Source of the DNA: an uncultured Candidatus Saccharibacteria bacterium
GTDB taxonomy: Bacteria > Patescibacteriota > Saccharimonadia > Saccharimonadales > 2-12-FULL-41-12
Assembly (NCBI GenBank): GCA_964648105.1
Contig: CAZYMH010000001.1
Coordinates: 79,999-143,998 of the forward strand
Length of the DNA: 64,000 nt
Direction: 5' to 3'
A model generated the notes under the pieces. That model ran no database searches. It saw nothing but the letters and a program-made list of their open reading frames with translations, and was not told the origin of the DNA. The translations under genes and the position numbers were made by a program. Below are positions 2,207 through 61,770 of this stretch, in pieces (the stretch's first letter is position 1; each line of letters begins with the position of its first letter).

Positions 2207-3676
2207 TTATTTACTAACAGGAGCTGGGCTATCATCTAACCGTGGGAAAAGCGTCCCTTCAATCGGTTGAAGCATACCCTTTTCGAAGATAAACTTAATT
2301 TTTTGAGACGTTACAGGCATAAATGGCTCGAGCATGCTGGAAATTTCTATCAAACAACTGACTATGTAAGCCAGAACTTCTCGTAAATGATCAACATCAT
2401 TGTTTTTAGCTAATGTCCATGGTTTTTCTTCATCTATATACTGATTAAGCCCTCGAACTTGCTGCCAAACTTCTTCTAACGCTCTATCGAAACGGAAATT
2501 AGCCATCGCCTCAATATATTCGGCTATATCATGCTCAGGTTCGGGCGTATCGCCAATTAAATTATTTTGGTATTTTTGTATCATCGCTATTGTGCGATTT
2601 ACAACATTACCTAACTCATTAGCTAGTTCATTGTTGTATACTTCGTCCATTCTTTTCCACGAGAAATCACCATCGTCATACGATGGAACATGTCGCATTA
2701 GATAATACCTCAAAGCATCAACTCCATATTTATCGACAACTTCTTTGGGGTGGATAACATTGCCTAGTGATTTGGAGATTTTTTTACCATCGATATTTAC
2801 AAAACCATGAACATACAAATTTTTGGGCAATTCCAGGCCTAAGCCTAGCAAGATTCCAGGCCAAATTGCGGCATGGAAGCGTGATATATCTTTGCCAACT
2901 ACCTGAACATTTGCAGGCCAAAAATCTTTAAAATCTTGATGTTCAGGGTAACCTAACACCGTAATATAATTCATCAGTGCTTCGAACCAAACATACATAA
3001 CTTGTTTGGAGTCATCTGGCACTGGAATCCCCCAAGCTATTTTATCTTTTGGCCGCGATATACTTATATCGTCTAACCCCTCGTTCATGAACTGCATAAC
3101 CTCGTGCTTGCGACTATCTGGAATTATCTTAAAATCACCGCTTGTGATTGCTTGGCCAATTTTATTTGTAAATGCCGATAACTTGAAAAAGTAATTTTCC
3201 TCGCTCAAAAGTTCATAAGGTTTTTTGTGCAACGGGCAAACATTGTTATTAGCTTTCATCACCGCCTCAGTCACGAACGCTTCACAGCCCATGCAGTAGT
3301 AACCTTGATATTTGTTTTTGTAAATAAAAGGCTTTAATTTCTGCCATATCATGGCCGCACGTTGTTCATGTCCTGGATCGGTCGTCCGAATAAATCTATC
3401 AGCACTAATATTGAGAATCGGACCGATTTCTCGCCATTTATCGCTCATTTCTTTAGCGTACTGGGCAACAGGCTTACCTAGCTCTTTGGCTTTTTCTTCG
3501 ACTTTACCACCATGTTCATCGGTACCTGTACTAAAAATCACTCGCTCGTATTGTTTGCGAGCATATCTGGCAATTACATCAGCCGCTACCATTTCATATG
3601 TGTGACCTAGGTGTGGTTCGCCGTTTATGTAAGGTATCGAAGTAGTTACAAAAAATGTTTTATTTTTTCCATTCAT
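2207..3676 (-). CDS. metG: methionine--tRNA ligase
   Basis: Class I HIGH-type motif PHLGH, KMSKS-type motif KISKSLGN, and a Cys cluster CMGCEAF...CPLH. 489 aa. Confidence 0.95.
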   Translation of the reverse strand: MNGKNKTFFVTTSIPYINGEPHLGHTYEMVAADVIARYARKQYERVIFSTGTDEHGGKVEEKAKELGKPVAQYAKEMSDKWREIGPILNISADRFIRTTDPGHEQRAAMIWQKLKPFIYKNKYQGYYCMGCEAFVTEAVMKANNNVCPLHKKPYELLSEENYFFKLSAFTNKIGQAITSGDFKIIPDSRKHEVMQFMNEGLDDISISRPKDKIAWGIPVPDDSKQVMYVWFEALMNYITVLGYPEHQDFKDFWPANVQVVGKDISRFHAAIWPGILLGLGLELPKNLYVHGFVNIDGKKISKSLGNVIHPKEVVDKYGVDALRYYLMRHVPSYDDGDFSWKRMDEVYNNELANELGNVVNRTIAMIQKYQNNLIGDTPEPEHDIAEYIEAMANFRFDRALEEVWQQVRGLNQYIDEEKPWTLAKNNDVDHLREVLAYIVSCLIEISSMLEPFMPVTSQKIKFIFEKGMLQPIEGTLFPRLDDSPAPVSK

Positions 3677-8076: not shown

Positions 8077-8120
8077 AAGCTTACTATATCACAGCCGCTT
8101 TTTTTATTTATAAGAGGGAA

Positions 8121-8138
8121 TACTTAACACGTTAAGTA
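8121..8138 (+). repeat. 18-nt near-palindrome TACTTAACACGTTAAGTA, copy 1
   Basis: Exact 18-mer. It sits 2 nt downstream of the rsmA stop and upstream of marR. See findings. Confidence 0.95.
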
Positions 8139-8139
8139 T

Positions 8140-8934
8140 TTAGTCGAATTTAGTTTCTAGCTCCAGCCACTGGTGGATTGATAACTCCTGCGGCCGTGCA
8201 TTTGGATTAATACTTAACGTGTTAAGTATTTCGGTGATTTCGGCTTTTGACATACTCATACCCGAACTTAGTGAGTTAACCAGCGTTTTACGTTTATTCA
8301 TAAAACTACATTTTAAAATGCGATTAAGATTTTTTTGATTACTGTTCTCATCTAATGAATGCTCTAGCCTATTCATAATCACTACCCTTGAATCAACTTT
8401 AGGCGGCGGCGAAAATTTATCGGCCTTTACAACTATTCCTAGCTGGCAGTCAAAATTCATCTGGCTATACACACTCAAAAGCGACATCTGCCCTGGGCTA
8501 GCACAAATCCGCTCAGCTACTTCTTTTTGAATTAATAGCACAATTACTTTAGGTCGGTTTTCTAAATCTCCTAAAATCCTAATTAATTTAGAAGTTAAAT
8601 AATATGGTATATTAGCCACAACCTTATAATCTTGTTTAACTTGCGAGAAATTAAATTTCAATATATCTTGGTTAACTAACTCTAACTTATCAGCATCTTG
8701 ACCAAATAATTTTTGGCGGGTTTTGTGTAAGTTTTCGTGAAGTTTTGAGTCAAATTCTACTGCTACGACTTTACGAGCTTTTTTGAGTAATTCGCCAGTT
8801 AGAGTACCTAGCCCAGGGCCAACTTCGATAACTAAATCATGATCATTTATCTGAGCGTAGTCGGCAATTTGCTCAAGTATATCTCGATCGGTGAGCCAAT
8901 GTTGACCCAGTGATTTATCAGGTTTATGGTCCAT
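8140..8934 (-). CDS. rsmA: 16S rRNA (adenine1518/1519-N6)-dimethyltransferase
   Basis: SLGQHWL, VIEVGPGLGTLT (SAM site) and NIPYY motifs. I preferred the ATG at 8934, 2 nt after the upstream stop. The track start at 8961 is a TTG. Confidence 0.9.
   Translation of the reverse strand: MDHKPDKSLGQHWLTDRDILEQIADYAQINDHDLVIEVGPGLGTLTGELLKKARKVVAVEFDSKLHENLHKTRQKLFGQDADKLELVNQDILKFNFSQVKQDYKVVANIPYYLTSKLIRILGDLENRPKVIVLLIQKEVAERICASPGQMSLLSVYSQMNFDCQLGIVVKADKFSPPPKVDSRVVIMNRLEHSLDENSNQKNLNRILKCSFMNKRKTLVNSLSSGMSMSKAEITEILNTLSINPNARPQELSIHQWLELETKFD
8211..8228 (-). repeat. 18-nt near-palindrome, copy 2 (inside rsmA, encodes ILNTLS)
   Basis: The plus strand reads TACTTAACGTGTTAAGTA. The sense strand of rsmA reads ATA CTT AAC ACG TTA AGT. 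Confidence 0.95.
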
Positions 8935-8936
8935 TT

Positions 8937-10310
8937 TTACCACCAATGATGTGAAATCCAAAAACTATAAGCACCTTGCCAACCACCATAAGTTCGCTTG
9001 GCATACGAGTTGCACCAGCTTAGTTGAGTAACTGGATTAGTCAAATAATCTCCGCCAGCGGAAGCCATTTTACTAGCAGGTAAAGCCTGGCAAAGTCCAT
9101 AGGCTCCACTGCTGGCATTGCCTGCTCCTGGTCGCCAACCTGATTCGCGACCGACTATATAATCAACCGCTGTGTAGTCACCAGGTGAAATCCCCGCAGC
9201 AGCCATAATACTTGCTTTGTCAGATGAGACATTGACATTCGATGGAACGGTTGGGGCTTTTTTACCGCGAGCAATAACTTTATTGACTGGTTGAGCCAAA
9301 ACAACTTCGTGCAAAATTTTCTTTTGTCCATCTGGCAAAACTTCATAAATTATTGCCCTAATACCATCACTGCCTTCATTTTTCGTGGTAGTTTTACCCA
9401 AATCCGTATTTGGGTCATCGACAGTATCGATTCCTCTTTTGATTAATTCCTGCGAAGAAGCTAGTTGTTTACCTGGTTCGGTTACAAAAACGATTTGGTT
9501 AGTTTGGATTTTGGTTGACGGGTCTGGCAAGATGGACATATTACTAAATGAAATATTACGCTCCTTAGCCAAGTCGGCCACTGTGTCGGCTCTTGTGCGA
9601 ATATCATATGTGGTGCCATAAAGATTTAGTTTAACAGGTAGCGAACGATCAAGCTTAATTTGCGTCCCTAAAATACCGTCTTTGATTGATTCATTTGGAC
9701 TAATAACGTCCAGCTTATCCTCTGGGTAAACCGTGTAGCCAGCTTTTTTGGCGATAACTACTGGCAATGTATCGGCTGTTTTTAGGACTGTTTTTTTGCC
9801 TGTATCATCGATCAAGGTCGTCAATTTTGCTTTGTAGACATTTATACTGAATTTCTCGCTGACAATCTGAGTATCAAGACTTGGCTCGACTAAATCACCG
9901 TCATTAATTTTTACATCTGTGCGGTCTAGAAACTCTTTTACTGTCGTTGCTCGGGTTGGCACAAACTGACTTTTGCCGTCGATAGAATATTGAATAATCC
10001 GCGAATCGGTTGGCTTAACCGATTGACCACCAAAGGCCAAAAAACCAACAATCGACGCCAAAAACAAAAAAATAATTGTTACTAACGGCACTACAAAAGG
10101 ATGCCGATCATTAAACGACTTTTTTATGTTACTTATTTTGACTGGTGGCAAATTTTTTAGGACTGGTCGAAGTTTATTGTTTGTCGATATTACACTAGTC
10201 GGCCTAATCACCAAACCTCTCTTCGGTTTTTTGGTAGAAATAATATCGAGCGTTTTGCCCGAAACTATAGAAGACACGGATTTAGAGTTTTTTGCAGATT
10301 TTTTGGCCAA
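8937..10310 (-). CDS. secreted cell-wall hydrolase, YabE/RpfB-like (DUF348 repeats, G5, lysozyme-like Apf-type C-terminal domain)
   Basis: TTG start preceded by GAGGTAAGG. An N-terminal TM anchor is followed by repeated beta-rich modules. The C-terminus reads GRESGW...SSGAYGLCQ...YGGWQGAYSFWISHHWW. Position next to rsmA matches the Firmicute yabE-ksgA synteny. Confidence 0.7.
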   Translation of the reverse strand: MAKKSAKNSKSVSSIVSGKTLDIISTKKPKRGLVIRPTSVISTNNKLRPVLKNLPPVKISNIKKSFNDRHPFVVPLVTIIFLFLASIVGFLAFGGQSVKPTDSRIIQYSIDGKSQFVPTRATTVKEFLDRTDVKINDGDLVEPSLDTQIVSEKFSINVYKAKLTTLIDDTGKKTVLKTADTLPVVIAKKAGYTVYPEDKLDVISPNESIKDGILGTQIKLDRSLPVKLNLYGTTYDIRTRADTVADLAKERNISFSNMSILPDPSTKIQTNQIVFVTEPGKQLASSQELIKRGIDTVDDPNTDLGKTTTKNEGSDGIRAIIYEVLPDGQKKILHEVVLAQPVNKVIARGKKAPTVPSNVNVSSDKASIMAAAGISPGDYTAVDYIVGRESGWRPGAGNASSGAYGLCQALPASKMASAGGDYLTNPVTQLSWCNSYAKRTYGGWQGAYSFWISHHWW

Positions 10311-32334: not shown

Positions 32335-32363
32335 CTGTTTCCAAGGACCGTCCTTGGAAACAG
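32335..32363 (+). repeat. REP-like perfect palindrome, copy 1
   Basis: CTGTTTCCAAGGAC-C-GTCCTTGGAAACAG (14-nt arms). Confidence 0.9.
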
Positions 32364-32577
32364 CTAGTGAAAAAGCTATGTAATGGTGTGTTTTTGCCTA
32401 ATTGTTAAGCTGCTACCACCCACCTCGTTTGACAGATCCACCTCTGTTGCCACTATTCGAGCGATACTGTTGATATATTAGCACAAGCGTGCGTTTTTGT
32501 CAATAGTATTATACTAAACTTCCCCTCTCTCAAAAAACATGTTCTTAAACCCCCCACACTCCCCTCAATCCTTTGCT

Positions 32578-32596
32578 TCCAAGGACCGTCCTTGGA
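32578..32596 (+). repeat. REP-like palindrome, copy 2 (shorter arms)
   Basis: TCCAAGGAC-C-GTCCTTGGA, 31 nt upstream of the RAYT start. The flanking C-rich leader resembles that of copy 1. Confidence 0.85.
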
Positions 32597-32626
32597 TACA
32601 AGTTCCACACATGATATTATTCAACT

Positions 32627-33271
32627 ATGCCAAGTCGTAACCGAATAAAAGCTTATTCATCAGACAGCTACTACCACATTTATAATAGAGGTGTAAATAA
32701 ACAAAAAATCTTCATAGATGATGAGGATCATCGAGTTTTCCTAAATTTATTCAAACGTTATCTAAGTAAAGCCCCAGTAAAAGACAATAAGGGTAGAGAG
32801 TACGATTGGCTCTATGAACAACTAAAGCTGCTAAGTTATTGCATCATGCCAAACCACTTCCATTTGTTTATTTTTCAGAACGAATCAACAGCCATGGAGC
32901 GGCTTACCCGTCGTGTATTTACATCTTACACTCAATATTTTAATAAAAAATATCATCGAGTCGGGCCACTTTTCCAGAGCCGATATAAAGCATCATTGAT
33001 CCTATCTGAATCATATCTACTCCATATCTCACGCTACATTCATCGAAATCCAAAAGATTATAGCAACTACAAATATTCTAGCTATAAATATTTTTTAGGT
33101 GTCCATGATTGTCCAGAGTGGCTAAATGCCCAAGCATTACTCGATATGTTCGATAACGATACCTCCCACTATCAAGCTTTTGTAGAGGACTATAAGAATT
33201 ATAAAGAAACATTAAACGAAATCTTGCCAGAACTAGCCAACACACATAACCTACAATCTACAAATCCTTAA
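32627..33271 (+). CDS. IS200-like Y1 HUH transposase, REP-associated tyrosine transposase (RAYT) type
   Basis: YHIYNRG, HUH motif MPNHFHLFI and catalytic-Tyr region SRYIHRNP. 214 aa, bracketed by REP-like palindromes. Confidence 0.8.
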   Translation: MPSRNRIKAYSSDSYYHIYNRGVNKQKIFIDDEDHRVFLNLFKRYLSKAPVKDNKGREYDWLYEQLKLLSYCIMPNHFHLFIFQNESTAMERLTRRVFTSYTQYFNKKYHRVGPLFQSRYKASLILSESYLLHISRYIHRNPKDYSNYKYSSYKYFLGVHDCPEWLNAQALLDMFDNDTSHYQAFVEDYKNYKETLNEILPELANTHNLQSTNP

Positions 33272-33318
33272 ATATATAATACTCCTGCAACTACACTCCT
33301 AAACTACGGGCTTTGTAC

Positions 33319-33343
33319 GTTTCCAAGGACGGTCCTTGGAAAC
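33319..33343 (-). repeat. REP-like palindrome, copy 3 (inverted relative to copies 1-2)
   Basis: GTTTCCAAGGAC-G-GTCCTTGGAAAC. The central G (versus C in copies 1-2) gives the opposite orientation. It lies 48 nt downstream of the RAYT stop. Confidence 0.9.
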
Positions 33344-33442
33344 TATTTCTATTGTCGGGTACAAGAAACAAAAAGAATCCTAAATAAATGAGTATTTAGG
33401 ATTCTTAATTAATATTTATTTTATGTTGACTATTGCTGGACT

Positions 33443-36759: not shown

Positions 36760-37668
36760 TCAGCCAGCCACGGGTGTGGGCTGGATGACCTTGGTGGGTA
36801 CCCGCACAACGACGCAAGCGTCGTCGCGTCGGGTGAGGCCCACCCCTGCGACGGCCACCACGTTGCAGAGCTTGCCGCTCCGCACCGTGGTGGTCTGATA
36901 GACGAACCGCTTGCTTGCCCCAGGGGCAAGCGAGACGTTCGCAGTCAAACGGCCGTTCTTGAGCGAGGTCCCCGAAGGGAGCTTGCCCGATAGGACCATG
37001 CCCGAGGGCATGACGTCGCTCAAGCGAAGCTTGAGCGTCACGCCACCAGTGTTCTTCACCACAACGGTGAAGATCACCTTGCCACCCTTGCGAGTAGACT
37101 TCTTGTTCGCGTCCTTGCGAACGACGAAGTTGGCCACAGCGGGCTGCTCCACCGTTACGGTGGGCGGCGGGTTCATGACAACCGTCGGTGGTGGCACCAC
37201 CGGGGTGGCCGGGGTGGCCGTGACGGTCGGCACGGTCGTGGGAGGCTTCGTCTTGTCGACGCAGCCACTCGGCACCGCAGGGACCGACACCATTTTGGTG
37301 TCGACACCCGATCGGCCGTCGGCCCAACGGAGGACGAACTTGGCAGTTCCTCCCCTGTAGGTTGACGATACCGAAACCATCCACATGGCATCCTTGCCAC
37401 CTACGGCCGCAAGGCGGCTGCCTTGCGACTTGCCGTCGAGGAGAGCCTCGACGGTCATGTTGTGCGTGGGACCGTAGGCAGGCTGCTTTTCGCGGTTACC
37501 CGCGGAAAGCGTGACCTGGCCACTGGCCTTGCCATTTGCGTCGTAGACGCAAATGGTCTTGGCTGACTGGACCGTGGTCCAGGCAGCGGCTGGCGATGCC
37601 ACAATAGCACCACCAACGAGAGATGTGGCCACTGACGTGGCTAGGGCGATGTTCCTCAGTCGAGGCAC
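36760..37668 (-). CDS. G+C-rich secreted protein with DUF11/CARDB-like repeat domain (foreign composition)
   Basis: GTG start with AAAGGAGA upstream. Signal peptide ALATSVATSLVGGAIVASPAAA. C-terminal pattern GGKVIFTVVVKNTGGVTLKLRLSDVMPSGM...LAPGASKRFVY...NVVAV is typical of DUF11. Multiple shadow ORFs. Confidence 0.75.
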   Translation of the reverse strand: MPRLRNIALATSVATSLVGGAIVASPAAAWTTVQSAKTICVYDANGKASGQVTLSAGNREKQPAYGPTHNMTVEALLDGKSQGSRLAAVGGKDAMWMVSVSSTYRGGTAKFVLRWADGRSGVDTKMVSVPAVPSGCVDKTKPPTTVPTVTATPATPVVPPPTVVMNPPPTVTVEQPAVANFVVRKDANKKSTRKGGKVIFTVVVKNTGGVTLKLRLSDVMPSGMVLSGKLPSGTSLKNGRLTANVSLAPGASKRFVYQTTTVRSGKLCNVVAVAGVGLTRRDDACVVVRVPTKVIQPTPVAG

Positions 37669-38057: not shown

Positions 38058-40856
38058 ATGATATTCAAAAATACCGACGTAAACCCACCCGATAAAGGTG
38101 CTGTTCTGCTCTTGCAAGTACCACGTAATAACGAGAAAAAAGAGCTAGCTACTGAGCAAGTTTTGGCGGCCATACATGGGCTACTTACCAAGGCCGAAAC
38201 AATGAGCTTTTTTGCTAGTACAGTTCACGAGAAGATTAGTTTCGAGATTGCTACCTTAAATGGCCGAATCTGCTTCTTTATCTGGACACCCGAACACCTC
38301 AAACAATATGTCCAAGATCAAGTTTATGCCCAATACCCTAGCGTTCACATTTCGGAGGTAGAAGATTACGCTCTGCATAACCAAAATTCGGTCAATATGG
38401 CCTGTGAGCTAAAATTAGCCGCTCCAGACCCTTTGCCTATCAAAACCTTCCCAAGCTTCGAGGTCGACCCATTGGCAGGTGTAACGGCCACTCTAGCTCA
38501 GCTAGACGAAGGCGAAAATGCATGGGTACAAGTGGTCGCTCGGCCCGCCCAGTCTGGCTGGTACAAAAAAAGCGAGCGTTACGCCCAAAATATCAGAGGT
38601 GGAGCTAAGAATAATGGTGCTTACACTGGGCTATGGGGAGCTTTATCGGCCCCACCTGAGCAAAAAAATACCACGACAACTCTTGCTGAGCATGAATCGG
38701 TCCGAGCCAGAGCCGCCGAAGAAAAAAGCCATAAACTGGCCTATCAAACCACTATTCGCATAATTTATAGCGGTAATTCGTCTGAATCTCAAGCCAGAAT
38801 GCGTTTACAATCGGTTATTGCTTCATTTAAACAGTTCAACTCAACATACCTAAACGGTTTTGTAGCTGGCAAAATGACTCAGCGGCACGAGGATATAGTT
38901 GCCTACCAAAACCGAAATTTTAGCCGCAAAACTATGATTCTGAACATCGAAGAGCTAGCGAGCGTCTACCATCTGCCACACACCAATGTTGAGACCCCTA
39001 ATATATTATGGGCCAATGCCACGACCGCCGAGCCACCAGCCAATTTACCAATCAAACTAACCGAAGAAGTTAGCCCAATCGCGGTGACTAATTTTCGGGG
39101 CCATAATACACTATTTGGCTTAACCAGAAACGATCGCGGTAGGCATGTGTATATTATTGGTCAAACTGGCACTGGTAAATCGGGTTTACTCGAGCTTCTT
39201 ACTATCTGTGACATCGATACCAACCATGGATTTGCGGTTATCGACCCGCACGGTGATTATGCTTTGAGTGTGCTACAAAGTATCCCAGAAAGTCGTATGA
39301 ACGACGTAATTTACTTCAACCCCGCCGATAGTCAATTTCCGATCCCCTTTAACCCTTTGGAAGTATCCGACCCTAAGCTCAAAAGTCATACTTGCTCAGA
39401 GCTAATTGGCGTCTTAAAACGAATGTTTGATTCTTGGGGTCCACGGCTAGAATATATCTTAAGGTACAGTATTTTGGCGTTGCTTGATTACCCCGAAGCT
39501 ACCATGCTCGACATCACCAAAATTTTAACCGACAAAAAGTTTCGTAACGATGTCTTGCAGTACGTCAATGACCCAGTTGTCAAGCAGTTTTGGACGGTCG
39601 AATTTGCTAGCTGGAACGATAAATTTGCTGCCGAAGCTGTCGCCCCAGTACTCAATAAAATCGGAGCCTTTACGGCTAACCCTTTGGTACGTAACATTGT
39701 CGGCCAGCCACACGGAAGTTTTAATATCCGCCAAATCATGGACGAAGGCAAAATCTTAATTGTCAATTTGTCGCGAGGTTTGATTGGCGAGGACAACGCC
39801 GCCCTTCTTGGCTCGCTGATGGTTACTAAAATCCAGATGGCCGCCATGTCGCGGGCCGATATCCCCAAAGAAGCTCGTAAGCCATTTTACCTATATGTTG
39901 ACGAATTCCAGAACTTCGCCACCGATAGTTTTGCAACGATTTTGTCAGAAGCACGTAAATATTCGCTTAATTTGACTGTTGCCAACCAATATACCGCCCA
40001 AATGATGCAAAGTGTTCGCGATGCGGTATTTGGCAACGTTGGGACGATCGTTAGCTTCCGTACAAGTGCCGACGATGCCCGTAGTATGCTCAAATATTTC
40101 GAGCCAAAATTTACCGATTACGACTTAGTTCACATGCATAATCGCCATTTTGTGGTTAGCATGACTATCGAGGGCGAAAAAGTTCAAGCCTTTTCGGCCG
40201 TTACCAAAGATTTAACTCCTGTAAACTTTGATAACACTGCAGAGATTATCGCCAAAAGTCGTGAACTTTATGCCACCGATATCGAATCAGTCGAAAAATA
40301 CATTGATAGTCGTTATCACCTCAAACCAACTGTTGGCCAAAAACCTAGTTTTTCTAGCAAAAGACCTTCTAGGCCTAAACCACCTGCCCCTATCGAAGCC
40401 GTAGAGCCTAGCCTTGAACAAACTCCGCCCCCACCTAGCTCCCCAGAAACTAATTTTGAGAAATCTCCCGAAAAATCTTTCGAAACTCTCGATGACAAAC
40501 ACGAAATTACCAAATCAAGCTCCAAACAATCTGTTATTTCGGCTCTAGCTAAACTCGCCGAAAATGCCACCACCAAACCTAGGCGTAAACGCAAACGAAC
40601 CCGAAAAAACAAAAATAAAGTAACATCTGTCGACTCATCACAGCAGCCTCAAAATATCAGTCCTCCCAAATCTGATCTGCCAAAAGCCAAGCCAACTATC
40701 AAAAGTGAGCCTAAAATTGAAGCCTCGAAGCCTCAAAAACAATCACTAGCAGAACCAAAATCTCAAACACCTAAACCAGTTGCCAATAAATCACCTAAAA
40801 AAGACGATATGGTAGACTTCAGCGGCAACGACGAAATCGTAATCAAACTCCGCTAA
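38058..40856 (+). CDS. type IV secretion coupling protein-like (TraD/VirD4/HerA-FtsK superfamily) ATPase with long K/P/S-rich tail
   Basis: Walker A IIGQTGTGKSGL, Walker B FYLYVDEFQNF, and a ~330-aa N-terminal domain of unknown function. The last ~190 aa are low-complexity basic/proline-rich. Confidence 0.65.
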   Translation: MIFKNTDVNPPDKGAVLLLQVPRNNEKKELATEQVLAAIHGLLTKAETMSFFASTVHEKISFEIATLNGRICFFIWTPEHLKQYVQDQVYAQYPSVHISEVEDYALHNQNSVNMACELKLAAPDPLPIKTFPSFEVDPLAGVTATLAQLDEGENAWVQVVARPAQSGWYKKSERYAQNIRGGAKNNGAYTGLWGALSAPPEQKNTTTTLAEHESVRARAAEEKSHKLAYQTTIRIIYSGNSSESQARMRLQSVIASFKQFNSTYLNGFVAGKMTQRHEDIVAYQNRNFSRKTMILNIEELASVYHLPHTNVETPNILWANATTAEPPANLPIKLTEEVSPIAVTNFRGHNTLFGLTRNDRGRHVYIIGQTGTGKSGLLELLTICDIDTNHGFAVIDPHGDYALSVLQSIPESRMNDVIYFNPADSQFPIPFNPLEVSDPKLKSHTCSELIGVLKRMFDSWGPRLEYILRYSILALLDYPEATMLDITKILTDKKFRNDVLQYVNDPVVKQFWTVEFASWNDKFAAEAVAPVLNKIGAFTANPLVRNIVGQPHGSFNIRQIMDEGKILIVNLSRGLIGEDNAALLGSLMVTKIQMAAMSRADIPKEARKPFYLYVDEFQNFATDSFATILSEARKYSLNLTVANQYTAQMMQSVRDAVFGNVGTIVSFRTSADDARSMLKYFEPKFTDYDLVHMHNRHFVVSMTIEGEKVQAFSAVTKDLTPVNFDNTAEIIAKSRELYATDIESVEKYIDSRYHLKPTVGQKPSFSSKRPSRPKPPAPIEAVEPSLEQTPPPPSSPETNFEKSPEKSFETLDDKHEITKSSSKQSVISALAKLAENATTKPRRKRKRTRKNKNKVTSVDSSQQPQNISPPKSDLPKAKPTIKSEPKIEASKPQKQSLAEPKSQTPKPVANKSPKKDDMVDFSGNDEIVIKLR

Positions 40857-40893: not shown

Positions 40894-40922
40894 CTGTTTC
40901 CAAGGACTGTCCTTGGAAACAG
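40894..40922. repeat. REP-like perfect palindrome, copy 4 (between convergent genes)
   Basis: CTGTTTCCAAGGAC-T-GTCCTTGGAAACAG. It could double as a bidirectional terminator hairpin. Confidence 0.9.
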
Positions 40923-40956: not shown

Positions 40957-43119
40957 TTATTTGATTTCGACGGCGTGAGATTTTTTGTCGAATGAAAAGC
41001 CGAATGTGCTGCCCTTGTTCTCTTTGCTATCGAATAAGATATTGCCGCCTTGGGTTTCAACCACCTTTTTGGCCATAAATAGCCCTAGCCCAGTGCCATC
41101 TGGCCGAGCTTCGCGGGCATTCCTAGCACGATAAAATTTCGTAAACATATGCTTTTTCTCGTCATCTGGTACACCAATTCCGTTATCTTTGACCATGAAG
41201 TAAACATTGGTTTTATCATCGCGTAGTTCAACTTCTATTCGCCCGCCACGTGGCGTATAGTACAGGGCATTGTCTGTAAAGTTCATAATAACTTGTCGAA
41301 CTTTATTTTCATCGAGCATCAGATCTATAAAATCTTTTGGTTTATCATAATTTATCTTGATATCTTTTAGGCTAGCTTGTTCGGCTAACTGAGCAATTTC
41401 GCCTTCTACCATGTCGGCCAGATTACACTTTTTATTTTCAATGATAAATTTGCCATATTTTAGCCGAGACACGTTCAAAAGGTCACTTATCAGATAGACC
41501 ATCCGCTGCGAGCTAACAAACGACTGCTCAAGTAGCTTACGCTGAGCATCATTTATTTCGCCAGCATCACCATCAAGCACCATGCTCATATAACCTTTTA
41601 CACTAGTCAAAGGCGTACGAAGCTGATGCGATGCCATGCTGATAAACTCATCTTTTGTAGCATCCATAGCCTTAAGTTTTTCATTGGTCCGTTTCAGCTT
41701 AGTAGTGGCATTATTCACCTTATCTTGCAAAGTAATATTGAATTCCTGTATCTCCTCAAACCTCAATGCATTTTGTATGGCAATTACCAATTCATCAGCA
41801 ATAATTTCGATAATCTTTATATCAGCTTTGCTATATACATTACCCGAACGCTTGTTACCAAAAATCATATAAGCAATAGTTTGTGTTTGTTGATAAGAAG
41901 TTACAGATAAATGTACAAGTGCAGCAATATTATATTTTAGATAGATTTTTTGCAGTTCTTCGTCTGTCGATTCTAAATCTTCGCTAGTAATTATTTTGCT
42001 CCCTAAGCCCACTAGTCGTCCTCGCATGTAACGCGATTCATGCTGCGTATACTCAATGTCTTCGGTGCCGATTACACGATCTTTTTTGCCATCTTCGCTT
42101 GGTATACCGACTTCAACAAAACTAGATTTCATATTCTCTTGAATAACAGTTGTAACTCGTCTAAGCAAAATCCCCACCTCAATATTACTTACAATTGCCT
42201 TGTTAAGTTGGTCTAAAAACTCTTGCGGATCATAAGCATCTCTAAAGAAAATTTTATTTGTAATCTTATCAAAATACCGTTTAATTGGTGGATAGCTAAG
42301 AATGGCTGCCACGAAAATTACAATATTTACAATAATTGGTATATAACCTTTTACACCACTTTGATATATATATCTTGTTAACAATGAAGATGCTATAGCG
42401 AAGAAAATAACTAGAGTGCCAATACTAAAAATATATCCAGCGGCTCGAAAGGCAACTGTTCTAATATCTAAAAGTTTATGCTTAATAATTGCGAATGTCA
42501 TAAATAATGATAAAAATATAACTGATGCAGGACCATAAGCAGCATATTCCCCATATTTAAAGGCAGGTAAAATTGCATTAAATAACAAAGACGGAGTTAA
42601 AGTTAATATAATTCCATAGTAGAAATATTGAATTTGAGTTTTTTCGTAAGAAGATGATGAGCTATGATAGCTCTTAAGACGATATACACTATAAGAAAAA
42701 TAAATTATCAGAACAAAAATTAATATCGGATATATTATTCCCGATTCAAAATTTTTTGAATCAGCATTTTTGACATTCAAGTTCGTAAAAGTAGTAGAGA
42801 TAATCGCAATTACAGGAATGGCAAATATAACCACCTCTTTATTTTTAATTTTCTTTTCAACAAATGAAAGAGAAAATAATAAAAAAAAGAATGGTAATAA
42901 TGCAGCTCCAATTAAAGATAATCTTGCAAATAAAAGTGCATTAGACGGATTATGGTATGAAAAATTAGTCAATATATTAAATAAAAGCCATAAAAATCCA
43001 GACAGTAAGAATAATGATAAGAATATATTTACTACCTTACGCGGATTGCTTACTAATACAACCATAAGAAGAGCAAAAATAATAGTTGAACAGAGTATAA
43101 GTATTATATTTATTAGCAT
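40957..43119 (-). CDS. multi-pass membrane sensor histidine kinase
   Basis: Multiple N-terminal TM helices (about 7-8 by eye), HisKA H-box FISMASHQLRTPLTS, and HATPase N/G boxes (NFTDNALYYTP, DNGIGVP, GTGLGL). Confidence 0.85.
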   Translation of the reverse strand: MLINIILILCSTIIFALLMVVLVSNPRKVVNIFLSLFLLSGFLWLLFNILTNFSYHNPSNALLFARLSLIGAALLPFFFLLFSLSFVEKKIKNKEVVIFAIPVIAIISTTFTNLNVKNADSKNFESGIIYPILIFVLIIYFSYSVYRLKSYHSSSSSYEKTQIQYFYYGIILTLTPSLLFNAILPAFKYGEYAAYGPASVIFLSLFMTFAIIKHKLLDIRTVAFRAAGYIFSIGTLVIFFAIASSLLTRYIYQSGVKGYIPIIVNIVIFVAAILSYPPIKRYFDKITNKIFFRDAYDPQEFLDQLNKAIVSNIEVGILLRRVTTVIQENMKSSFVEVGIPSEDGKKDRVIGTEDIEYTQHESRYMRGRLVGLGSKIITSEDLESTDEELQKIYLKYNIAALVHLSVTSYQQTQTIAYMIFGNKRSGNVYSKADIKIIEIIADELVIAIQNALRFEEIQEFNITLQDKVNNATTKLKRTNEKLKAMDATKDEFISMASHQLRTPLTSVKGYMSMVLDGDAGEINDAQRKLLEQSFVSSQRMVYLISDLLNVSRLKYGKFIIENKKCNLADMVEGEIAQLAEQASLKDIKINYDKPKDFIDLMLDENKVRQVIMNFTDNALYYTPRGGRIEVELRDDKTNVYFMVKDNGIGVPDDEKKHMFTKFYRARNAREARPDGTGLGLFMAKKVVETQGGNILFDSKENKGSTFGFSFDKKSHAVEIK

Positions 43120-47849: not shown

Positions 47850-48492
47850 GTCGATTTACAATCGCGTCTTCTGGTTGAAGGATAGCTATGTTTTCAGACC
47901 CAAGCGTGCGGATATCTTTTTCAATCCAATGATAATGTGTACAACCTAGAACAATTACATCGGCATTTGATTTTTTGATAAATTCGACTGTTTTGGCGAT
48001 TTTGGCGTGACTTATTTGGTTATTTTCTATCATGGCCGCCCACTGACTACAATCTGGCTCAATTATTGTAATGCCTTTTGCATATAAATCTTTAAGCTCC
48101 TGATAGCGTTTACTTTTTAGGGTCGATGGAGTGGCACAAACCGCAATAACTTTGGATTTGGTAAGCAAAGAAGCAGGCTTAATCATTGGTTCGAGTCCAA
48201 TAATCGGCACAGTTATAAACTCCCTTAGATCTTGAATTATGTTAGTGGTAACGGTGTTACAAGCCACAACAATTACGTCACAAGATTTACTTAACGTGTT
48301 AAGTATTGGTAGAACAATCTTCAGTAACTCATCTGGGGATTTATTGCCGTATGGTAAATTTTGAGCGTCTCTCTCGAAAATAACATCTAGGCCTGGAAAA
48401 TTATCAGATATAGCTTTGGCTACCGACTTCCCGCCTACGCCAGAGTCAAATACGCCAACAGTTAGTTTTTTAGGCATTGGTTTTGGCAGCAT
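47821..48492 (-). CDS. murI: glutamate racemase
   Basis: VFDSGVGG, VVACNT and LGCTHY catalytic Cys motifs. Confidence 0.9.
   Translation of the reverse strand: MLPKPMPKKLTVGVFDSGVGGKSVAKAISDNFPGLDVIFERDAQNLPYGNKSPDELLKIVLPILNTLSKSCDVIVVACNTVTTNIIQDLREFITVPIIGLEPMIKPASLLTKSKVIAVCATPSTLKSKRYQELKDLYAKGITIIEPDCSQWAAMIENNQISHAKIAKTVEFIKKSNADVIVLGCTHYHWIEKDIRTLGSENIAILQPEDAIVNRLKQVLGQLD
48288..48305 (-). repeat. 18-nt near-palindrome, copy 3 (inside murI, encodes ILNTLS)
   Basis: The plus strand reads TACTTAACGTGTTAAGTA. The murI sense strand reads ATA CTT AAC ACG TTA AGT. Confidence 0.95.
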
Positions 48493-50661: not shown

Positions 50662-50738
50662 TGGTACCCTGGGAGGGACTCGAACCCCCGGCACGCGGGA
50701 TAGAAGCCCGCTGCTCTAATCCACTGAGCTACCAGGGC
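50662..50738 (-). tRNA. tRNA-Arg(UCU)
   Basis: Cloverleaf: D-arm GCTC-AGTGGATTA-GAGC, anticodon loop CTTCTAT, T-arm GGGGG-TTCGAGT-CCCTC, encoded CCA. 77 nt. Confidence 0.88.
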
Positions 50739-50878
50739 ATGCTTGTAAATATTTTAACATAAAACCGGGTGTTCGAGTCGCTGACTCGACTCACGTTTCA
50801 CGCGAGCCCTTCGCCACATCTTTGCAAAATCAGTTTGCAAGAGTGGACTCCCTTGCGATATGCCACAGGCATATCTCA

Positions 50879-50937
50879 CCCCGGCACGCGGGATAGAAGC
50901 CCGCTGCTCTAATCCGTCTCGAGCTACCAGGGCATGC
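50879..50937 (-). pseudogene. truncated second copy of tRNA-Arg(UCU) (5' two-thirds plus 4 nt of upstream flank)
   Basis: Matches the 50662-50738 gene from the 5' flank GCAT through acceptor, D-arm (D-loop diverged: GAGACGGATTA), anticodon arm and variable loop up to CCGGGG. No matching 3' acceptor strand follows. Confidence 0.6.
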
Positions 50938-50952
50938 CGATAATAATTATTG

Positions 50953-51027
50953 TGGTGCGGGTGGCGGGAGTCTAACCCGCGTCGCCTGCTTGGAAGGCAG
51001 GAATAATAAACGTTATACCACACCCGC
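50953..51027 (-). tRNA. tRNA-Gly(UCC), atypical D- and T-loops
   Basis: GCGGGTG/CACCCGC acceptor, anticodon arm CCTGC-CTTCCAA-GCAGG, T-arm GCGGG-TTAGACT-CCCGC, encoded CCA. The D-region TGGTATAACGTTTATTATT lacks the GG dinucleotide. Confidence 0.75.
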
Positions 51028-53844: not shown

Positions 53845-55122
53845 ATGACTGATAAACAAGTTGCAGATTTGATTATAAAAGAACAAAAACGCCAAAACGA
53901 AGGTTTAGAATTAATTCCTAGCGAAAATTATGTCAGTAGTGATGTGTTGGAAGCGATGGGCAGTATTTTCACTAACAAATATTCGGAAGGTTACCCAAAT
54001 AAACGCTACTATGGCGGCCAAGAAAATACTGATGCCCTAGAACAATTAGCGATTGATCGAGCCAAAAAACTTTTTGGAGCCGACCATGCTAACGTGCAGC
54101 CCCACTCAGGAGCTCAAGCCAATGAGGCTGTCTATCATGCTTGGCTAGAACCGGGCGATAATGTTTTGGCCATGGATTTAAGCCACGGCGGACACCTAAC
54201 CCACGGAAGTCCTGTAACGGTTTTGGCTCGAACCTATAACTTTATACGATACAAAATGAAGGACCCTGCCACTGGCGAAATTGATTATGAAGAGTTACGC
54301 CGACTGGCCAAAAAGCATAAACCTAAAATTATTCTGGCAGGTTTTAGTGCATACCCTCGGGAGCTCGATTATCAAAAATTTGCCGAAATTGGCAATGAAG
54401 TAGGAGCCTTGCTGGTGGCCGATATGGCTCATGTTGCTGGTTTGATTGCTGGTGGCGTCGCCAAAAACCCGTTTGACTGTGGCTTTCATGTTATCACCGC
54501 AACAACCCATAAAACTCTGCGAGGGCCTAGAGGTGGATTGATTTTGTCGAAAGGCACCGTGTCTAATCCACTAAAAAAACCAGAGAAAACCATCGATAAT
54601 ATTCCAACTTTGATCGACCGCACGGTATTTCCGGGCGTTCAAGGTGGACCTCACATGCATATTATTGCAGCGAAGGCAGTAGCTTTTGGCGAGGCACTAC
54701 AGCCAGAATTTAAGGCGTATGCGGAGCAAACTGTAAAGAATGCCTATGTTTTGGCTGAGGAGCTAAAAAAGCGTGGCTTCAAATTAATTACTGGTGGCAC
54801 GTCTAATCACTTAATTTTGTGTGATATTTATTCTAGTTTTGGGATTGATGGTGATGTAGCCGAAAAAGCACTCGATAAAATCGGTTTAACGCTCAATAAA
54901 AACACTATTGCCGATGACCCTTTGCCGCCATTTAGACCTAGTGGTATTAGGCTAGGAACACCTGCTATAACTACTCGCGGTATGACCGATAAAGACATGA
55001 TTAAAATTGCCGAATGGATGGAAACTGCTATCAAAAATCGCGATAATGAAAAAATACTTAACACGTTAAGTAAAAATGTAAAAGAATTTGCCACGCAATT
55101 TCCTTTGCCAAATACCAAATAA
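53845..55122 (+). CDS. glyA: serine hydroxymethyltransferase
   Basis: LIPSENY, YYGG, SHGGHLTHG, TTHKTLRGPRGG (PLP Lys). SD AAAGGAGA. Confidence 0.95.
   Translation: MTDKQVADLIIKEQKRQNEGLELIPSENYVSSDVLEAMGSIFTNKYSEGYPNKRYYGGQENTDALEQLAIDRAKKLFGADHANVQPHSGAQANEAVYHAWLEPGDNVLAMDLSHGGHLTHGSPVTVLARTYNFIRYKMKDPATGEIDYEELRRLAKKHKPKIILAGFSAYPRELDYQKFAEIGNEVGALLVADMAHVAGLIAGGVAKNPFDCGFHVITATTHKTLRGPRGGLILSKGTVSNPLKKPEKTIDNIPTLIDRTVFPGVQGGPHMHIIAAKAVAFGEALQPEFKAYAEQTVKNAYVLAEELKKRGFKLITGGTSNHLILCDIYSSFGIDGDVAEKALDKIGLTLNKNTIADDPLPPFRPSGIRLGTPAITTRGMTDKDMIKIAEWMETAIKNRDNEKILNTLSKNVKEFATQFPLPNTK
55055..55072 (+). repeat. 18-nt near-palindrome, copy 4 (inside glyA, encodes ILNTLS)
   Basis: Exact TACTTAACACGTTAAGTA, read in frame as ATA CTT AAC ACG TTA AGT. 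Confidence 0.95.
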
Positions 55123-60603: not shown

Positions 60604-61137
60604 ATGAATTTGCTATATGTAACAGGCAACAAAAATAAAGCCAAATTTATAAGACAGAATTTTGATTTTGATTTCGAAGTTTATGACTTGTCTTTGGACG
60701 AAATTCAATCGCTTAATCCTGATGATATTATCAAACATAAAGTTATCCAAGCCTACAAGCATATCAAGCAGCCTGTGTTTGTCGAAGACACTTGTTTGTT
60801 TATAAATGAACTCGGTAATTTACCAGGGCCATTTATCAAATTCTTTATAAATGAGTTAGGCCTAAACAAAATTTGTGACATGATAAATAACGATCGTAGT
60901 GCAAAAGCAGTAAGCACAATCGGTTATTATGATGGCAAAAATCTACATATTTTTCAGCGAGAATTAGCAGGCCAAATTAGCTTATCGCCAAAAGGCCAAA
61001 ATGGATTTGGTTGGGACAAAATTTTTATTATTAACGGCCAAAAACAAACTAATGCTCAATTAACAGATAGAAATTATCTTAATTTCTATAAATCACTCAA
61101 ACCATTTGACGAACTAAAAAATTACTTAACACGTTAA
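60604..61137 (+). CDS. rdgB: non-canonical purine NTP pyrophosphatase (HAM1/RdgB family)
   Basis: LLYVTGNKNK, VEDTCL and GFGWDKIF motifs. 177 aa. Confidence 0.8.
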   Translation: MNLLYVTGNKNKAKFIRQNFDFDFEVYDLSLDEIQSLNPDDIIKHKVIQAYKHIKQPVFVEDTCLFINELGNLPGPFIKFFINELGLNKICDMINNDRSAKAVSTIGYYDGKNLHIFQRELAGQISLSPKGQNGFGWDKIFIINGQKQTNAQLTDRNYLNFYKSLKPFDELKNYLTR

Positions 61138-61140
61138 GTA
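61123..61140 (+). repeat. 18-nt near-palindrome, copy 5 (spans rdgB stop, abuts convergent gene stop)
   Basis: Exact TACTTAACACGTTAAGTA. Here it is read as TAC TTA ACA CGT TAA, so the motif supplies the stop codon. Confidence 0.95.
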
Positions 61141-61770
61141 TTATATTGTTAGTAAATACAAACAAGCGATTGGGATCAAAAAATTGTCTATGCCATACCA
61201 CGACAAACTTTCGATTATCGTTAGCACTATTGGCACCAAAATCACCAAATACCAAAAGCTATATTCGTTGCGATGAGTCACATACGCACTAAGCATAATC
61301 AAAACTGAAGTTACAAAAAAAGCTAAATTGCCGTGCAGTGATTTTTTGTTGCCCAGGATTGAATAGCTGGTAAGTTTGCCCCACTTTACCCCGACAAGTG
61401 CAGCCGCCGAATCAGCTACCGCCAGGTGCAAAATCGAGATTGTAAATATCCAAACTTTTGGCTCGAGTAAAGCCAACAGAACGATTGCCAACGCAAACAA
61501 AATTTCTCCGATTGTTACTCGCTCGACTGCGTGAATTGAACGAAAAATACCGACTTTTTTGCTAATCAAAATTACCAGCACAAAAGCAATTCCTAAAATT
61601 TGAATTTCTAACCAACTAGCAAAAAATGGCATAAAAGCAACGATTATACCTGACAAAACATGAACTAACTTTCGGCTAAGTTCGGTACTGGCTAATTTTT
61701 TGTGATGCAAAAATTCTGAGAAAATCAGTACACCAAATATGGCAACACAAACAATTAGCAAATTAATCAT
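61141..61770 (-). CDS. polytopic membrane protein, dolichol/phytol kinase-CdsA superfamily-like
   Basis: 209 aa, 6-7 TM. SRKLVHVLSG and DSAAALVG motifs resemble the CTP-dependent polyprenol kinase family. Confidence 0.5.
   Translation of the reverse strand: MINLLIVCVAIFGVLIFSEFLHHKKLASTELSRKLVHVLSGIIVAFMPFFASWLEIQILGIAFVLVILISKKVGIFRSIHAVERVTIGEILFALAIVLLALLEPKVWIFTISILHLAVADSAAALVGVKWGKLTSYSILGNKKSLHGNLAFFVTSVLIMLSAYVTHRNEYSFWYLVILVPIVLTIIESLSWYGIDNFLIPIACLYLLTI

Follow-up and report, generated by a model that had tools for sequence, protein, structure and literature searches.

A probable REPtron/TIRtron-like module in Saccharibacteria: a class-2 Y1 HUH enzyme gene bracketed by a palindrome that recurs across Patescibacteria

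To our knowledge, reports of REP-associated tyrosine transposases (RAYTs) with their repetitive extragenic palindromes (REPs), as well as of the TIRYT systems, come almost exclusively from Proteobacteria, Cyanobacteria, Bacteroidetes, and a small number of further phyla, and we know of no function for their largest group (Group 1, or subclass 2.1). A literature search returned no relevant report on RAYTs, REPs, or IS200 elements for Patescibacteria, the candidate phyla radiation (CPR), or Saccharibacteria. Here, a gene of this kind is described in a 64-kb stretch of DNA from an uncultured Candidatus Saccharibacteria bacterium (contig CAZYMH010000001.1, positions 79,999 to 143,998; hereafter the window, within which the palindromes and the Y1 gene copies of this genome were counted). 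The gene, at 32627..33271 on the plus strand, encodes a 214-aa single-tyrosine (Y1) HUH transposase-like protein, and copies of a palindrome stand on both sides of it. With a probability of roughly 0.6, the locus is best explained as a REPtron/TIRtron-like module, i.e., a single-copy class-2 Y1 HUH enzyme (TIRYT, subclass 2.1, Group 1) placed between copies of the palindrome that it most likely recognizes.

In the classification of Quentin 2018 (PMC6006769), enzymes with a Y---NP motif form class 2 (TnpA-REP-like), while IS200 transposases carry Y---Q. Table 1 of that paper gives the signature NH[YF]H / FQ / Y[IV]HLNP / SS for subclass 2.1; no REP-like sequences are reported for this subclass, and Patescibacteria are not mentioned. 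Subclass 2.1 corresponds to RAYT Group 1 (Bertels 2017, PMC5581495), rated among the two most IS-like of six RAYT groups (IS, insertion sequence), and to most TIRYTs (Di Nocera 2013, PMC3733652). The inverted repeats of TIRtrons share the sequence GGGGWSAS, and some of them are self-complementary, form small dispersed families, or occur as dimers (PMC3733652).

The window protein belongs to the class-2 (Y---NP) Y1 HUH proteins. It carries the motifs YHIYNRG, NHFH (the HUH motif, residues 76-79, within PNHFHLF), FQ (116-117), YIHRNP (137-142, with the catalytic Tyr137), and YSS (with an invariant SS at 151-152), followed by a helical C-terminal tail. Residues N76, H77, H79, Y137, N141, and P142 are invariant in alignments of 14 and of 48 homologs, and the family consensus reads YIHLNP where the window protein has YIHRNP. 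The initial annotation, made from the sequence alone, had recognized the HUH (HFH) and catalytic-tyrosine (YIHRNP) motifs in this open reading frame (ORF); both are present, and the protein passes the Pfam Y1_Tnp cut-off (33.6 bits vs. 23). Because a sequence search against the PDB gave no match and profile matches were weak, the fold was compared instead. An AlphaFold2 model built from 48 homologs (pLDDT 90, pTM 0.82) has as its best Foldseek match in the PDB the E. coli TnpA-REP protein bound to a REP hairpin (4ER8; E 1.2e-6, TM 0.65 over the target), with ISDra2, IS608, and archaeal IS200 transposases ranked below it. At 50% identity and E<=1e-30, the family falls into at least 204 clusters. 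A word-indexed search of 5.8 billion database proteins collected 3769 homologs; the nearest relative is 63% identical, and nearly all clusters listed by this search represent one to a few sequences. The closest homologs from cultured bacteria are plasmid-borne "transposases" of Legionella, P. aeruginosa, R. rubrum, Sporomusa, and Skermanella (28-37% identity). The gene occurs once in the window, and fragments of it were found neither elsewhere in the window nor beside solo palindromes.

The palindrome GTTTCCAAGGAC-N-GTCCTTGGAAAC has four matches in the window, vs. 0 expected from 100 shuffles, and a relaxed scan of the window for any RGG-N5-CCY palindrome yielded no sites beyond these four. 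Three of the four copies are located at the Y1 gene, and three are perfect. The distal upstream copy 1 (32335..32363) is a perfect 29-nt palindrome, CTGTTTCCAAGGAC-C-GTCCTTGGAAACAG, with a 25-nt core at 32337-32361 and centre C; it lies 263 nt before the ATG and 238 nt upstream of copy 2, and as DNA it folds into a hairpin of -13.4 kcal/mol (z -7.7). The gene-proximal upstream copy 2 (32575..32599; GCTTCCAAGGACCGTCCTTGGATAC, i.e., GCTTCCAAGGAC-C-GTCCTTGGATAC, centre C) is located between divergent genes just 5′ of the start codon; it bears two arm mismatches (arms GCTTCC...GGATAC), its pairing is limited to the inner 9 bp of each arm, and its hairpin has a free energy of -7.9. The downstream copy 3 (33319..33343) is perfect, has centre G, is the exact reverse complement of 32337-32361 (100% complementary), and folds with -10.6. 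Copies 2 and 3 bracket the Y1 ORF, with 27 nt between the palindrome end and the ATG and 47 nt between the stop codon and the palindrome. Copy 4 (40894..40922; perfect over 29 nt, core 40896-40920, centre T) is a solo copy 7.6 kb away from the Y1 module. It lies between the convergent genes 38058..40856 (plus strand, VirD4/TrwB-like ATPase) and 40957..43119 (minus strand, histidine kinase), 34 nt past the 3′ end of the latter. All four copies fold as hairpins when single-stranded (-7.9 to -13.4 kcal/mol, z -4.6 to -8).

These measurements refine the picture given by the initial annotation. Its perfect copies at 32335-32363 (centre C) and at 40894-40922 (centre T, between convergent genes) are exactly as described. 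A perfect palindrome on each side of the gene holds for the downstream side, with centre G, while the gene-proximal upstream copy is the one with the mismatches, and the distances given as 31 nt upstream and 48 nt downstream are replaced by the 27 and 47 nt measured. The C-rich leader ascribed to both upstream copies does exist (ACTCTCCC...AATCCT vs. ACTCCCC...AATCCT), with a modest degree of similarity.

The association of gene and palindrome extends well beyond this genome. A scan of species-representative genomes with TTCCAAGGAC-N-GTCCTTGGAA returned 29 stretches, nearly all from Patescibacteria and from several classes (Saccharibacteria, Paceibacterota/Parcubacteria, Zambryskibacteria, Ryanbacteria), with one to five exact cores per representative genome. 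In five GTDB genomes whose Y1 homologs are 31-59% identical to the window protein, the CCAAGGAC palindrome is positioned 9-33 nt ahead of the start codon and 1-49 nt past the stop codon. The 19-21-nt core is shared among Saccharibacteria, Paceibacterota, Zambryskibacteria, and Ryanbacteria despite proteins that are just 31-35% identical. The exact 21-mer was also encountered once each in a Nevskiaceae contig (L008, 557 kb) and in Omnitrophota (L010), which are not labelled as Patescibacteria; these matches could lie within chance expectation or reflect mis-binning. Viral contigs scanned for the 19-mer core gave 0 matches and a phage protein search one weak partial match, so that a phage origin is not supported.

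A further sample of 80 metagenome homolog loci (38-55% identity; about 85 loci together with the GTDB ones) contained the exact CCAAGGAC palindrome in merely 2-3 of 80. The first reading of this result, that gene and palindrome are not associated, was dropped when a de novo hairpin search revealed lineage-specific variants: nearly all of the 80 loci have on both sides their own palindrome of the form CA(A/G)GG-N5-CC(Y)TG, e.g., CAAGGTC-N-GACCTTG, CAGGGTC-N-GACCCTG, CCAAGGTT-C-AACCTTGG, or CAGGG-CGAGA-CCCTG, some of them as inverted doublets. The centre-aligned consensus is TT-n-CA(A/G)GG(W)C-N-G(W)CC(Y)TG-n-AA, in which GG and CC reach at least 80%. As a strict symmetric motif missed part of the association, the counts were made with a relaxed one; within 100 nt, it was detected upstream in 52 of 83 loci and downstream in 44 of 78, against a background of 0.007 per flank, and the loci scored as negative contain asymmetric-centre variants visible by eye in their flanks. 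The module is a family-wide trait in Patescibacteria, far above background.

The two flanks of a locus evolve in concert. In 44 of 52 loci, an identical 11-mer core is present on both flanks (22 direct, 22 inverted), while different loci have a half-site in common in about 25% of pairs, rising to 67% where the proteins are at least 60% identical. Flanks homogenized within a genome, together with turnover between lineages, are what an enzyme and its substrate would be expected to show. The same figures bear on the inverted arrangement reported for the window: copy 3 is indeed a reverse complement, but its orientation depends on a single centre base, and in the family direct and inverted pairs are equally frequent.

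The upstream palindrome appears to be built into the promoter of the gene. In the window, a promoter-like site at 32593..32620 (plus strand) has TGGATA/TTGGAT as a -35 element inside the palindrome arm, a 16-17-nt spacer, and TATTAT as a -10 element; read as TTGGAT-17-TATTAT, it ends 6 nt before the ATG. This candidate promoter comes from a consensus scan and is not significant alone, but it is supported by the family-wide geometry. A TANNNT hexamer ending 5-10 nt before the start was found in 60 of 85 loci vs. a background of 0.15, and the distances from palindrome centre to start codon cluster at about 25 and about 40 nt. The window (40 nt to the ATG) belongs to the 40-nt class, where a -10 element is present in 16 of 17 loci and the right palindrome arm supplies TTGNAA at -35 with a 17-nt spacer. 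A -10 element so near the ATG implies a leaderless transcript, and the Y1 mRNA is probably leaderless both in the window and in the homolog loci. The overlap of the upstream palindrome with the predicted -35 element suggests feedback control.

Palindromes away from Y1 genes are common in other genomes, and about half of them lie inside long conserved ORFs, always in frame. Twelve such host genes were recorded (RsmA, MnmA, PurL, TsaD, SecF-like, PolA, a glycosyltransferase, RluD, HolA, LigA, RecX, and UvrA), where the palindrome encodes, depending on the frame, FQG.SLE, SKD.PWK, or PRTVLG. In LigA, an inverted doublet of 45 nt (centres C and G) gives a 15-aa insertion just before the KxDG motif, an insertion that neither PDB ligases nor any of 119 database homologs have. 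It can be described as a lineage-specific insertion only, since the best homolog is about 60% identical, and a recent event is not claimed. The copy in MnmA amounts to a clean insertion of 6 aa. Precedents for in-frame palindromic insertions are the Rickettsia palindromic elements (RPEs) and intragenic REPs, including those in uvrA and uvrB, and the in-frame copies of the window's palindrome in other genomes suggest mobility. Stop codons are absent from all six frames of the palindrome, for which we estimate a chance of about 40% in a 21-nt palindrome; stop-free frames are a precondition of in-frame survival and not evidence of design. Tight doublets have complementary centres in five of five cases and look as if the ends of a module had been joined without the gene.

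The same pre-KxDG loop holds different insertions in further LigA proteins of Patescibacteria (e.g., ...SPFKKGEMEGD... and ...PHPALRATFSPKGEKENSE...), which hints at further short inserted elements at that site. Another "solo" copy, in L013 and L025 (both CAZFPJ01), was rejected as a clean palindrome transposition: L013:1140-1447 and L025:2442-2750 form a 309-nt segmental duplication with 94% identity that takes in the 5′ part of the adjacent gene, the palindrome, and the final 20 nt of Y1. Segmental duplication, and not independent spread, thus accounts for some of the "solo" palindromes. A cluster of four palindrome copies within 530 nt was noticed at L012:2973-3501 (JAPUDS010000034.1); it has no Y1 gene, and next to it lie a fragment of a Bro-N/antirepressor-like ORF and a stretch of N in the assembly.

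Among the described systems, TIRYTs of subclass 2.1 are the closest. The window protein has their signature (NHFH, FQ, YIHRNP, SS), its best homologs from cultured bacteria are of TIRYT type (Legionella, P. aeruginosa, R. rubrum), inverted or self-complementary repeats flank the gene at a short and fairly constant distance, with a core GG-W-C-N-G that seems to fit GGGGWSAS, and the repeats are low in copy number, some of them being dimers. On the R. rubrum plasmid, the homolog has AAAGGGGTCAGACCCCTT upstream and GGGGTCTGACCCC downstream, with GGGGTCAGACCCC on both sides, and the P. aeruginosa homolog is flanked by inverted AAAGGGGACAGATCT; the repeats of both match GGGGWSAS, and the GGGGTCAG/GGGGTCTG palindromes of R. 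rubrum bridge the Patescibacterial and TIRYT forms. In an informal comparison, the window half-site AAGGAC-N-G agrees with GGGGWSAS at six of eight positions (GGWS-S; family consensus (A/G)GG-W-C-N-G), and the Patescibacterial AAGG-W-C-N-G half-site reads as an AT-richer form of GGGGWSAS.

In contrast to TIRYTs, with a median of 238 aa, the window protein and its relatives have 204-218 aa, are shorter than subclass 2.1 members, and lack the distal domain: no Pfam match to a helix-turn-helix (Bac_DnaA_C/HTH_23/HTH_28) was detected in the window protein or in one divergent Patescibacterial homolog, while the Legionella homolog gives weak Bac_DnaA_C and helix-turn-helix matches, as described for the subclass 2.1 tail. 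The Patescibacterial repeat also differs in being AT-richer (AAGG for GGGG) and a near-perfect palindrome, in keeping its 19-21-nt core across classes, and in having in-frame copies in housekeeping genes of related genomes. The data for this clade disagree with the finding of no repeats for subclass 2.1 (PMC6006769). Judged from these sequence comparisons, the module is probably best filed as a Patescibacterial variant of the TIRYT/TIRtron (subclass 2.1) and not as a canonical GTAG-tagged, high-copy REP system.

Canonical REP/RAYT systems (YafM/TnpA-REP, 4ER8; subclasses 2.2, 2.4, 2.5, 2.7, and 2.8) share with the window the class-2 Y---NP motif, the closest solved fold, and a gene, found once in the window, that is bracketed by cognate palindromes co-varying with the protein between lineages; the doublets of the window family resemble REPINs, and intragenic copies, including those in DNA-repair genes, have precedents there. 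The initial annotation, which had called the locus a REP/RAYT system, is borne out as to a palindrome of its own bracketing a class-2 Y1 gene with a fold nearest to 4ER8, but not as to the diagnostic details. The protein scores 39.5 bits with the NCBIfam model for REP-associated tyrosine transposases (REP_Tyr_transpos, NF047646), below the equivalog cut-off of 80. The GT[AG]G tetranucleotide that serves as a 5′ guide at the foot of REPs is absent from all four window copies, whose flanks are CCTG/TTTG/GTAC/CCTG and TTTCC; CTAC...GTAG occurs inside the arms in some distant family members, an arrangement different from a foot GTAG. The stems here are perfect and unbulged, the flanking copies are direct as often as inverted, and there seem to be few copies per genome vs. 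tens to hundreds. The REP-like dispersal that had been proposed likewise shows no high-copy sign, the window containing one solo copy (copy 4) and one extra upstream copy (copy 1) and other genomes the few exact cores given above.

The TnpA proteins of IS200/IS605 elements (IS608, ISDra2; subclass 1.1) have in common with the window module the HUH/Y1 fold, subterminal hairpins, and a presumed single-stranded DNA (ssDNA) mechanism. They differ from it in Y---Q vs. Y---NP, in lacking the extra 70-aa tail, and in the tnpB gene, for which there is no counterpart here, whereas the Patescibacterial gene appears to be single-copy, with one copy in the window, and fixed in position within a species; neither Y---Q, nor a protein reduced to the ~150-aa core, nor several near-identical copies were found in the window. 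RPEs and intragenic REPs are similar in being short palindromic repeats that sit in frame in conserved genes without disrupting them, a kind of insertion seen here in related genomes and not in the window; compared with Rickettsia RPEs, the inserts are much shorter (21-45 nt). CGTC-type repeats (including RPE-4 and RPE-6) have no dedicated transposase, whereas here a candidate cognate enzyme gene has the palindrome at both ends. An intrinsic terminator family, i.e., GC hairpins with a T-run at gene 3′ ends, does not describe the palindrome, contrary to a possibility raised by the initial annotation: one copy stands between divergent genes, and others are in frame in housekeeping genes.

Motifs, fold, the phylum-wide association of gene and palindrome, and the dispersed solos and doublets, with their lineage-specific in-frame insertions in other genomes, carry the interpretation as a REPtron/TIRtron-like module. 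Under this interpretation, the palindrome CCAAGGAC-N-GTCCTTGG would fold into a hairpin whenever the DNA is single-stranded, e.g., during replication, and the enzyme would bind the hairpin, with the HUH-bound metal and Tyr137 cutting and rejoining the adjacent ssDNA. Over evolutionary time, single palindromes and inverted doublets, the latter representing two module ends without the gene, would be copied to new sites, and the same activity would keep the two flanking copies identical. Binding to the upstream palindrome, which overlaps the -35 element of the probably leaderless promoter, would feed back on expression, and the downstream copy may aid transcription termination.

Several observations weigh against this interpretation. 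Binding and cleavage, for the window protein as for any subclass 2.1 member, are extrapolated from E. coli TnpA-REP and IS608, to whose kind (solved Y1 enzymes) the profile matches are weak (E 0.03-0.08), and the subclass 2.1 assignment depends in part on our own comparison, as no repeats are listed for this subclass in PMC6006769. With one truly dispersed copy in 64 kb, the low copy number gives no sign of ongoing mobilization in this genome, and two of the four window copies are terminator-like. Among the intragenic copies, the one in PurL makes no net insertion and the one in UvrA adds just 4 aa, and no matching Y1 gene was seen in the 8-kb stretches read from the genomes with intragenic copies. 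The module of L044 lies between response-regulator and Mur-ligase genes that are 2 nt apart in the window, and the different intergenic slots occupied in related genomes are what an autonomous IS would give as well.

An autonomous element of the IS200/IS605 type, with the palindromes as its end hairpins, transposition of the whole unit, and solos and doublets as MITE-like deletion derivatives, is one of the alternatives to be weighed, and we regard it as rather unlikely. It would suit a compact unit of ~0.7-1.0 kb with hairpins at both ends in every locus, the homologs on plasmids, the rating of Group 1 among the most IS-like RAYTs (PMC5581495), and a position that varies from histidine kinase (L009, L079) to response regulator/Mur ligase (L044), ruvA/ruvC (L113), and the surface-protein block of the window. 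The protein itself argues otherwise, having Y---NP in place of Y---Q, 214 aa with a tail in place of ~150 aa, and a fold nearest to TnpA-REP, as do its single window copy without fragments, the 63% identity of its nearest relative together with clusters of one to a few sequences, and the lack of matches in viral contigs.

Residency of the gene is a further argument against an autonomous element. Protein P0042 is identical on 14 contigs and, in all six places shown, which come from independent samples, its gene lies between ruvA and ruvC, flanked by GTTTCCAAGGAG-C-CTCCTTGGAAAC upstream and by the same sequence with centre G downstream; its chromosomal position is fixed within one species. In five Saccharibacteria, the module is kept in one neighbourhood of ~15 kb (regional synteny). 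L009 and L079 carry the whole palindrome-Y1-palindrome module directly 3′ of the ortholog of the histidine kinase, a slot which in the window is occupied by the solo copy 4, and in L044 and L039 the module stands beside orthologs of the window genes at 46-49 kb. In Saccharibacteria, the Y1 gene has remained in one neighbourhood and changed its slot, which is compatible with a resident, occasionally relocated gene or with rare transposition of the whole unit. Relative to L009, the window Y1 gene is inverted and 7.5 kb away from the histidine kinase, and the block separating the two has palindromes at either end; this hints at a palindrome-mediated inversion, which is not claimed, as the L009 gene downstream of Y1 has no homolog in the window. 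The location within a variable surface locus, as the initial annotation put it, is descriptive of the window, where the neighbours encode proteins that have PKD and DUF11 domains along with signal and anchor segments, while in relatives the module is elsewhere. In L113 (JGI Ga0558719_00012, a 1.25-Mb contig of a widespread Saccharibacteria species), the module splits a ruvC-ruvA pair and lies on the opposite strand, with palindromes at 2949-2973 and 3615-3639; the stop codon contains the beginning of the downstream palindrome, and ruvA, as called, starts inside the upstream one.

Equally improbable, in our estimate, is that the palindromes are mainly regulatory or structural DNA (an operator with a -35 element, terminators, or sites of a dimeric double-strand DNA binder) that the Y1 enzyme does not mobilize and that is dispersed by other means. 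The fixed distance of the upstream palindrome from the start codon, over the -35 element of a probable leaderless promoter, would be expected of such DNA, and a near-perfect dyad around a 1-nt centre is what dimeric proteins that bind double-strand DNA typically recognize; the unconstrained orientation of the centre, with direct and inverted pairs equally frequent, points the same way. In a simple terminator scan, copy 1 passes on the minus strand, where a T-run follows, and copy 3 on the plus strand, and the solo copy lies between convergent genes. However, copies 2 and 4 have no T-run and fail the scan, and a separate AT-rich hairpin at 33373..33406 (AAGAATCCTAAATA...TATTTAGGATTCTT), located in the space separating Y1 from the convergent gene for the PKD protein, is already terminator-like on both strands; it is outside the palindrome family, forms part of the 3′ boundary of the module, and is a stronger terminator candidate than the palindromes. 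A regulatory role also leaves unexplained the conservation of the core at the level of the phylum on both sides of the gene, the inverted doublets, and the in-frame copies in 12 housekeeping genes with the lineage-specific LigA and MnmA insertions.

Some IS elements target REPs, and the reverse causality, in which palindromes and doublets pre-exist and the Y1 gene is a mobile cassette inserting between or beside them, would account for tight inverted doublets without a gene and for a solo palindrome in the window at the very site, 3′ of the histidine kinase, at which relatives have the module, but it is the least probable explanation, being very unlikely, because the palindrome variant follows the protein lineage and the flanks are homogenized, which enzyme-substrate co-evolution fits better, and no examined genome region has palindromes abundant enough to be a target pool.

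The REPtron/TIRtron-like module can be extended to a wider proposal, which we put forward tentatively and hold to be less likely than not to be right in full: in Patescibacteria, an ancient phylum-wide partnership may link a short Y1 HUH enzyme to a stop-free palindrome that spreads in frame as an RPE-like element and whose arms double as the -35 element of the enzyme gene, forming a feedback loop. If so, 21-nt singles and 45-nt inverted doublets would have spread into surface loops of essential proteins (LigA, PolA, UvrA, MnmA, TsaD, SecF), and they would have entered coding loops since genomes this small leave hardly any room between genes.

A few other features of the window deserve mention. 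A second palindrome family, unrelated to the first, (A)ATACTTAAC-RY-GTTAAGTAT(T), has five copies (8119-8140, 8209-8230, 48286-48307, 55053-55074, and 61121-61142), mostly at or near gene ends, two of which flank the start region of an RsmA-like gene (8140..8961); it may represent terminators or the binding site of a regulator. A lone perfect palindrome with 11-bp arms, CCATTTGCGTC-GTA-GACGCAAATGG, is situated at 37532-37556 in the 5′ part of a DUF11-protein ORF (36760..37668, minus strand). Finally, a partial tRNA duplicate (3′ part, 50868-50924) lies ~190 nt from an intact tRNA gene (50665-50738, minus strand) and adjoins another (50956-51027), a pattern typical of an old integration site.

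What is new here is the phylum, the near-universal linkage of gene and palindrome in a clade of at least 204 clusters (50% identity), the conservation of a 19-21-nt core across classes, the apparent overlap with a promoter, and the copies lying in frame within housekeeping genes in related genomes. A recognition core kept over very deep divergence provides a clean minimal substrate, a 25-nt perfect hairpin, for tests of the enzyme. For annotation, these Y1 genes should not be called IS200 transposases, and the short palindromes explain some of the odd 7-15-aa inserts in conserved Patescibacterial proteins. If the enzyme mobilizes the palindrome, the in-frame copies would serve as a marker for strain-level tracking, and the module would be a case of selfish DNA reshaping replication and repair proteins in some of the smallest bacterial genomes.

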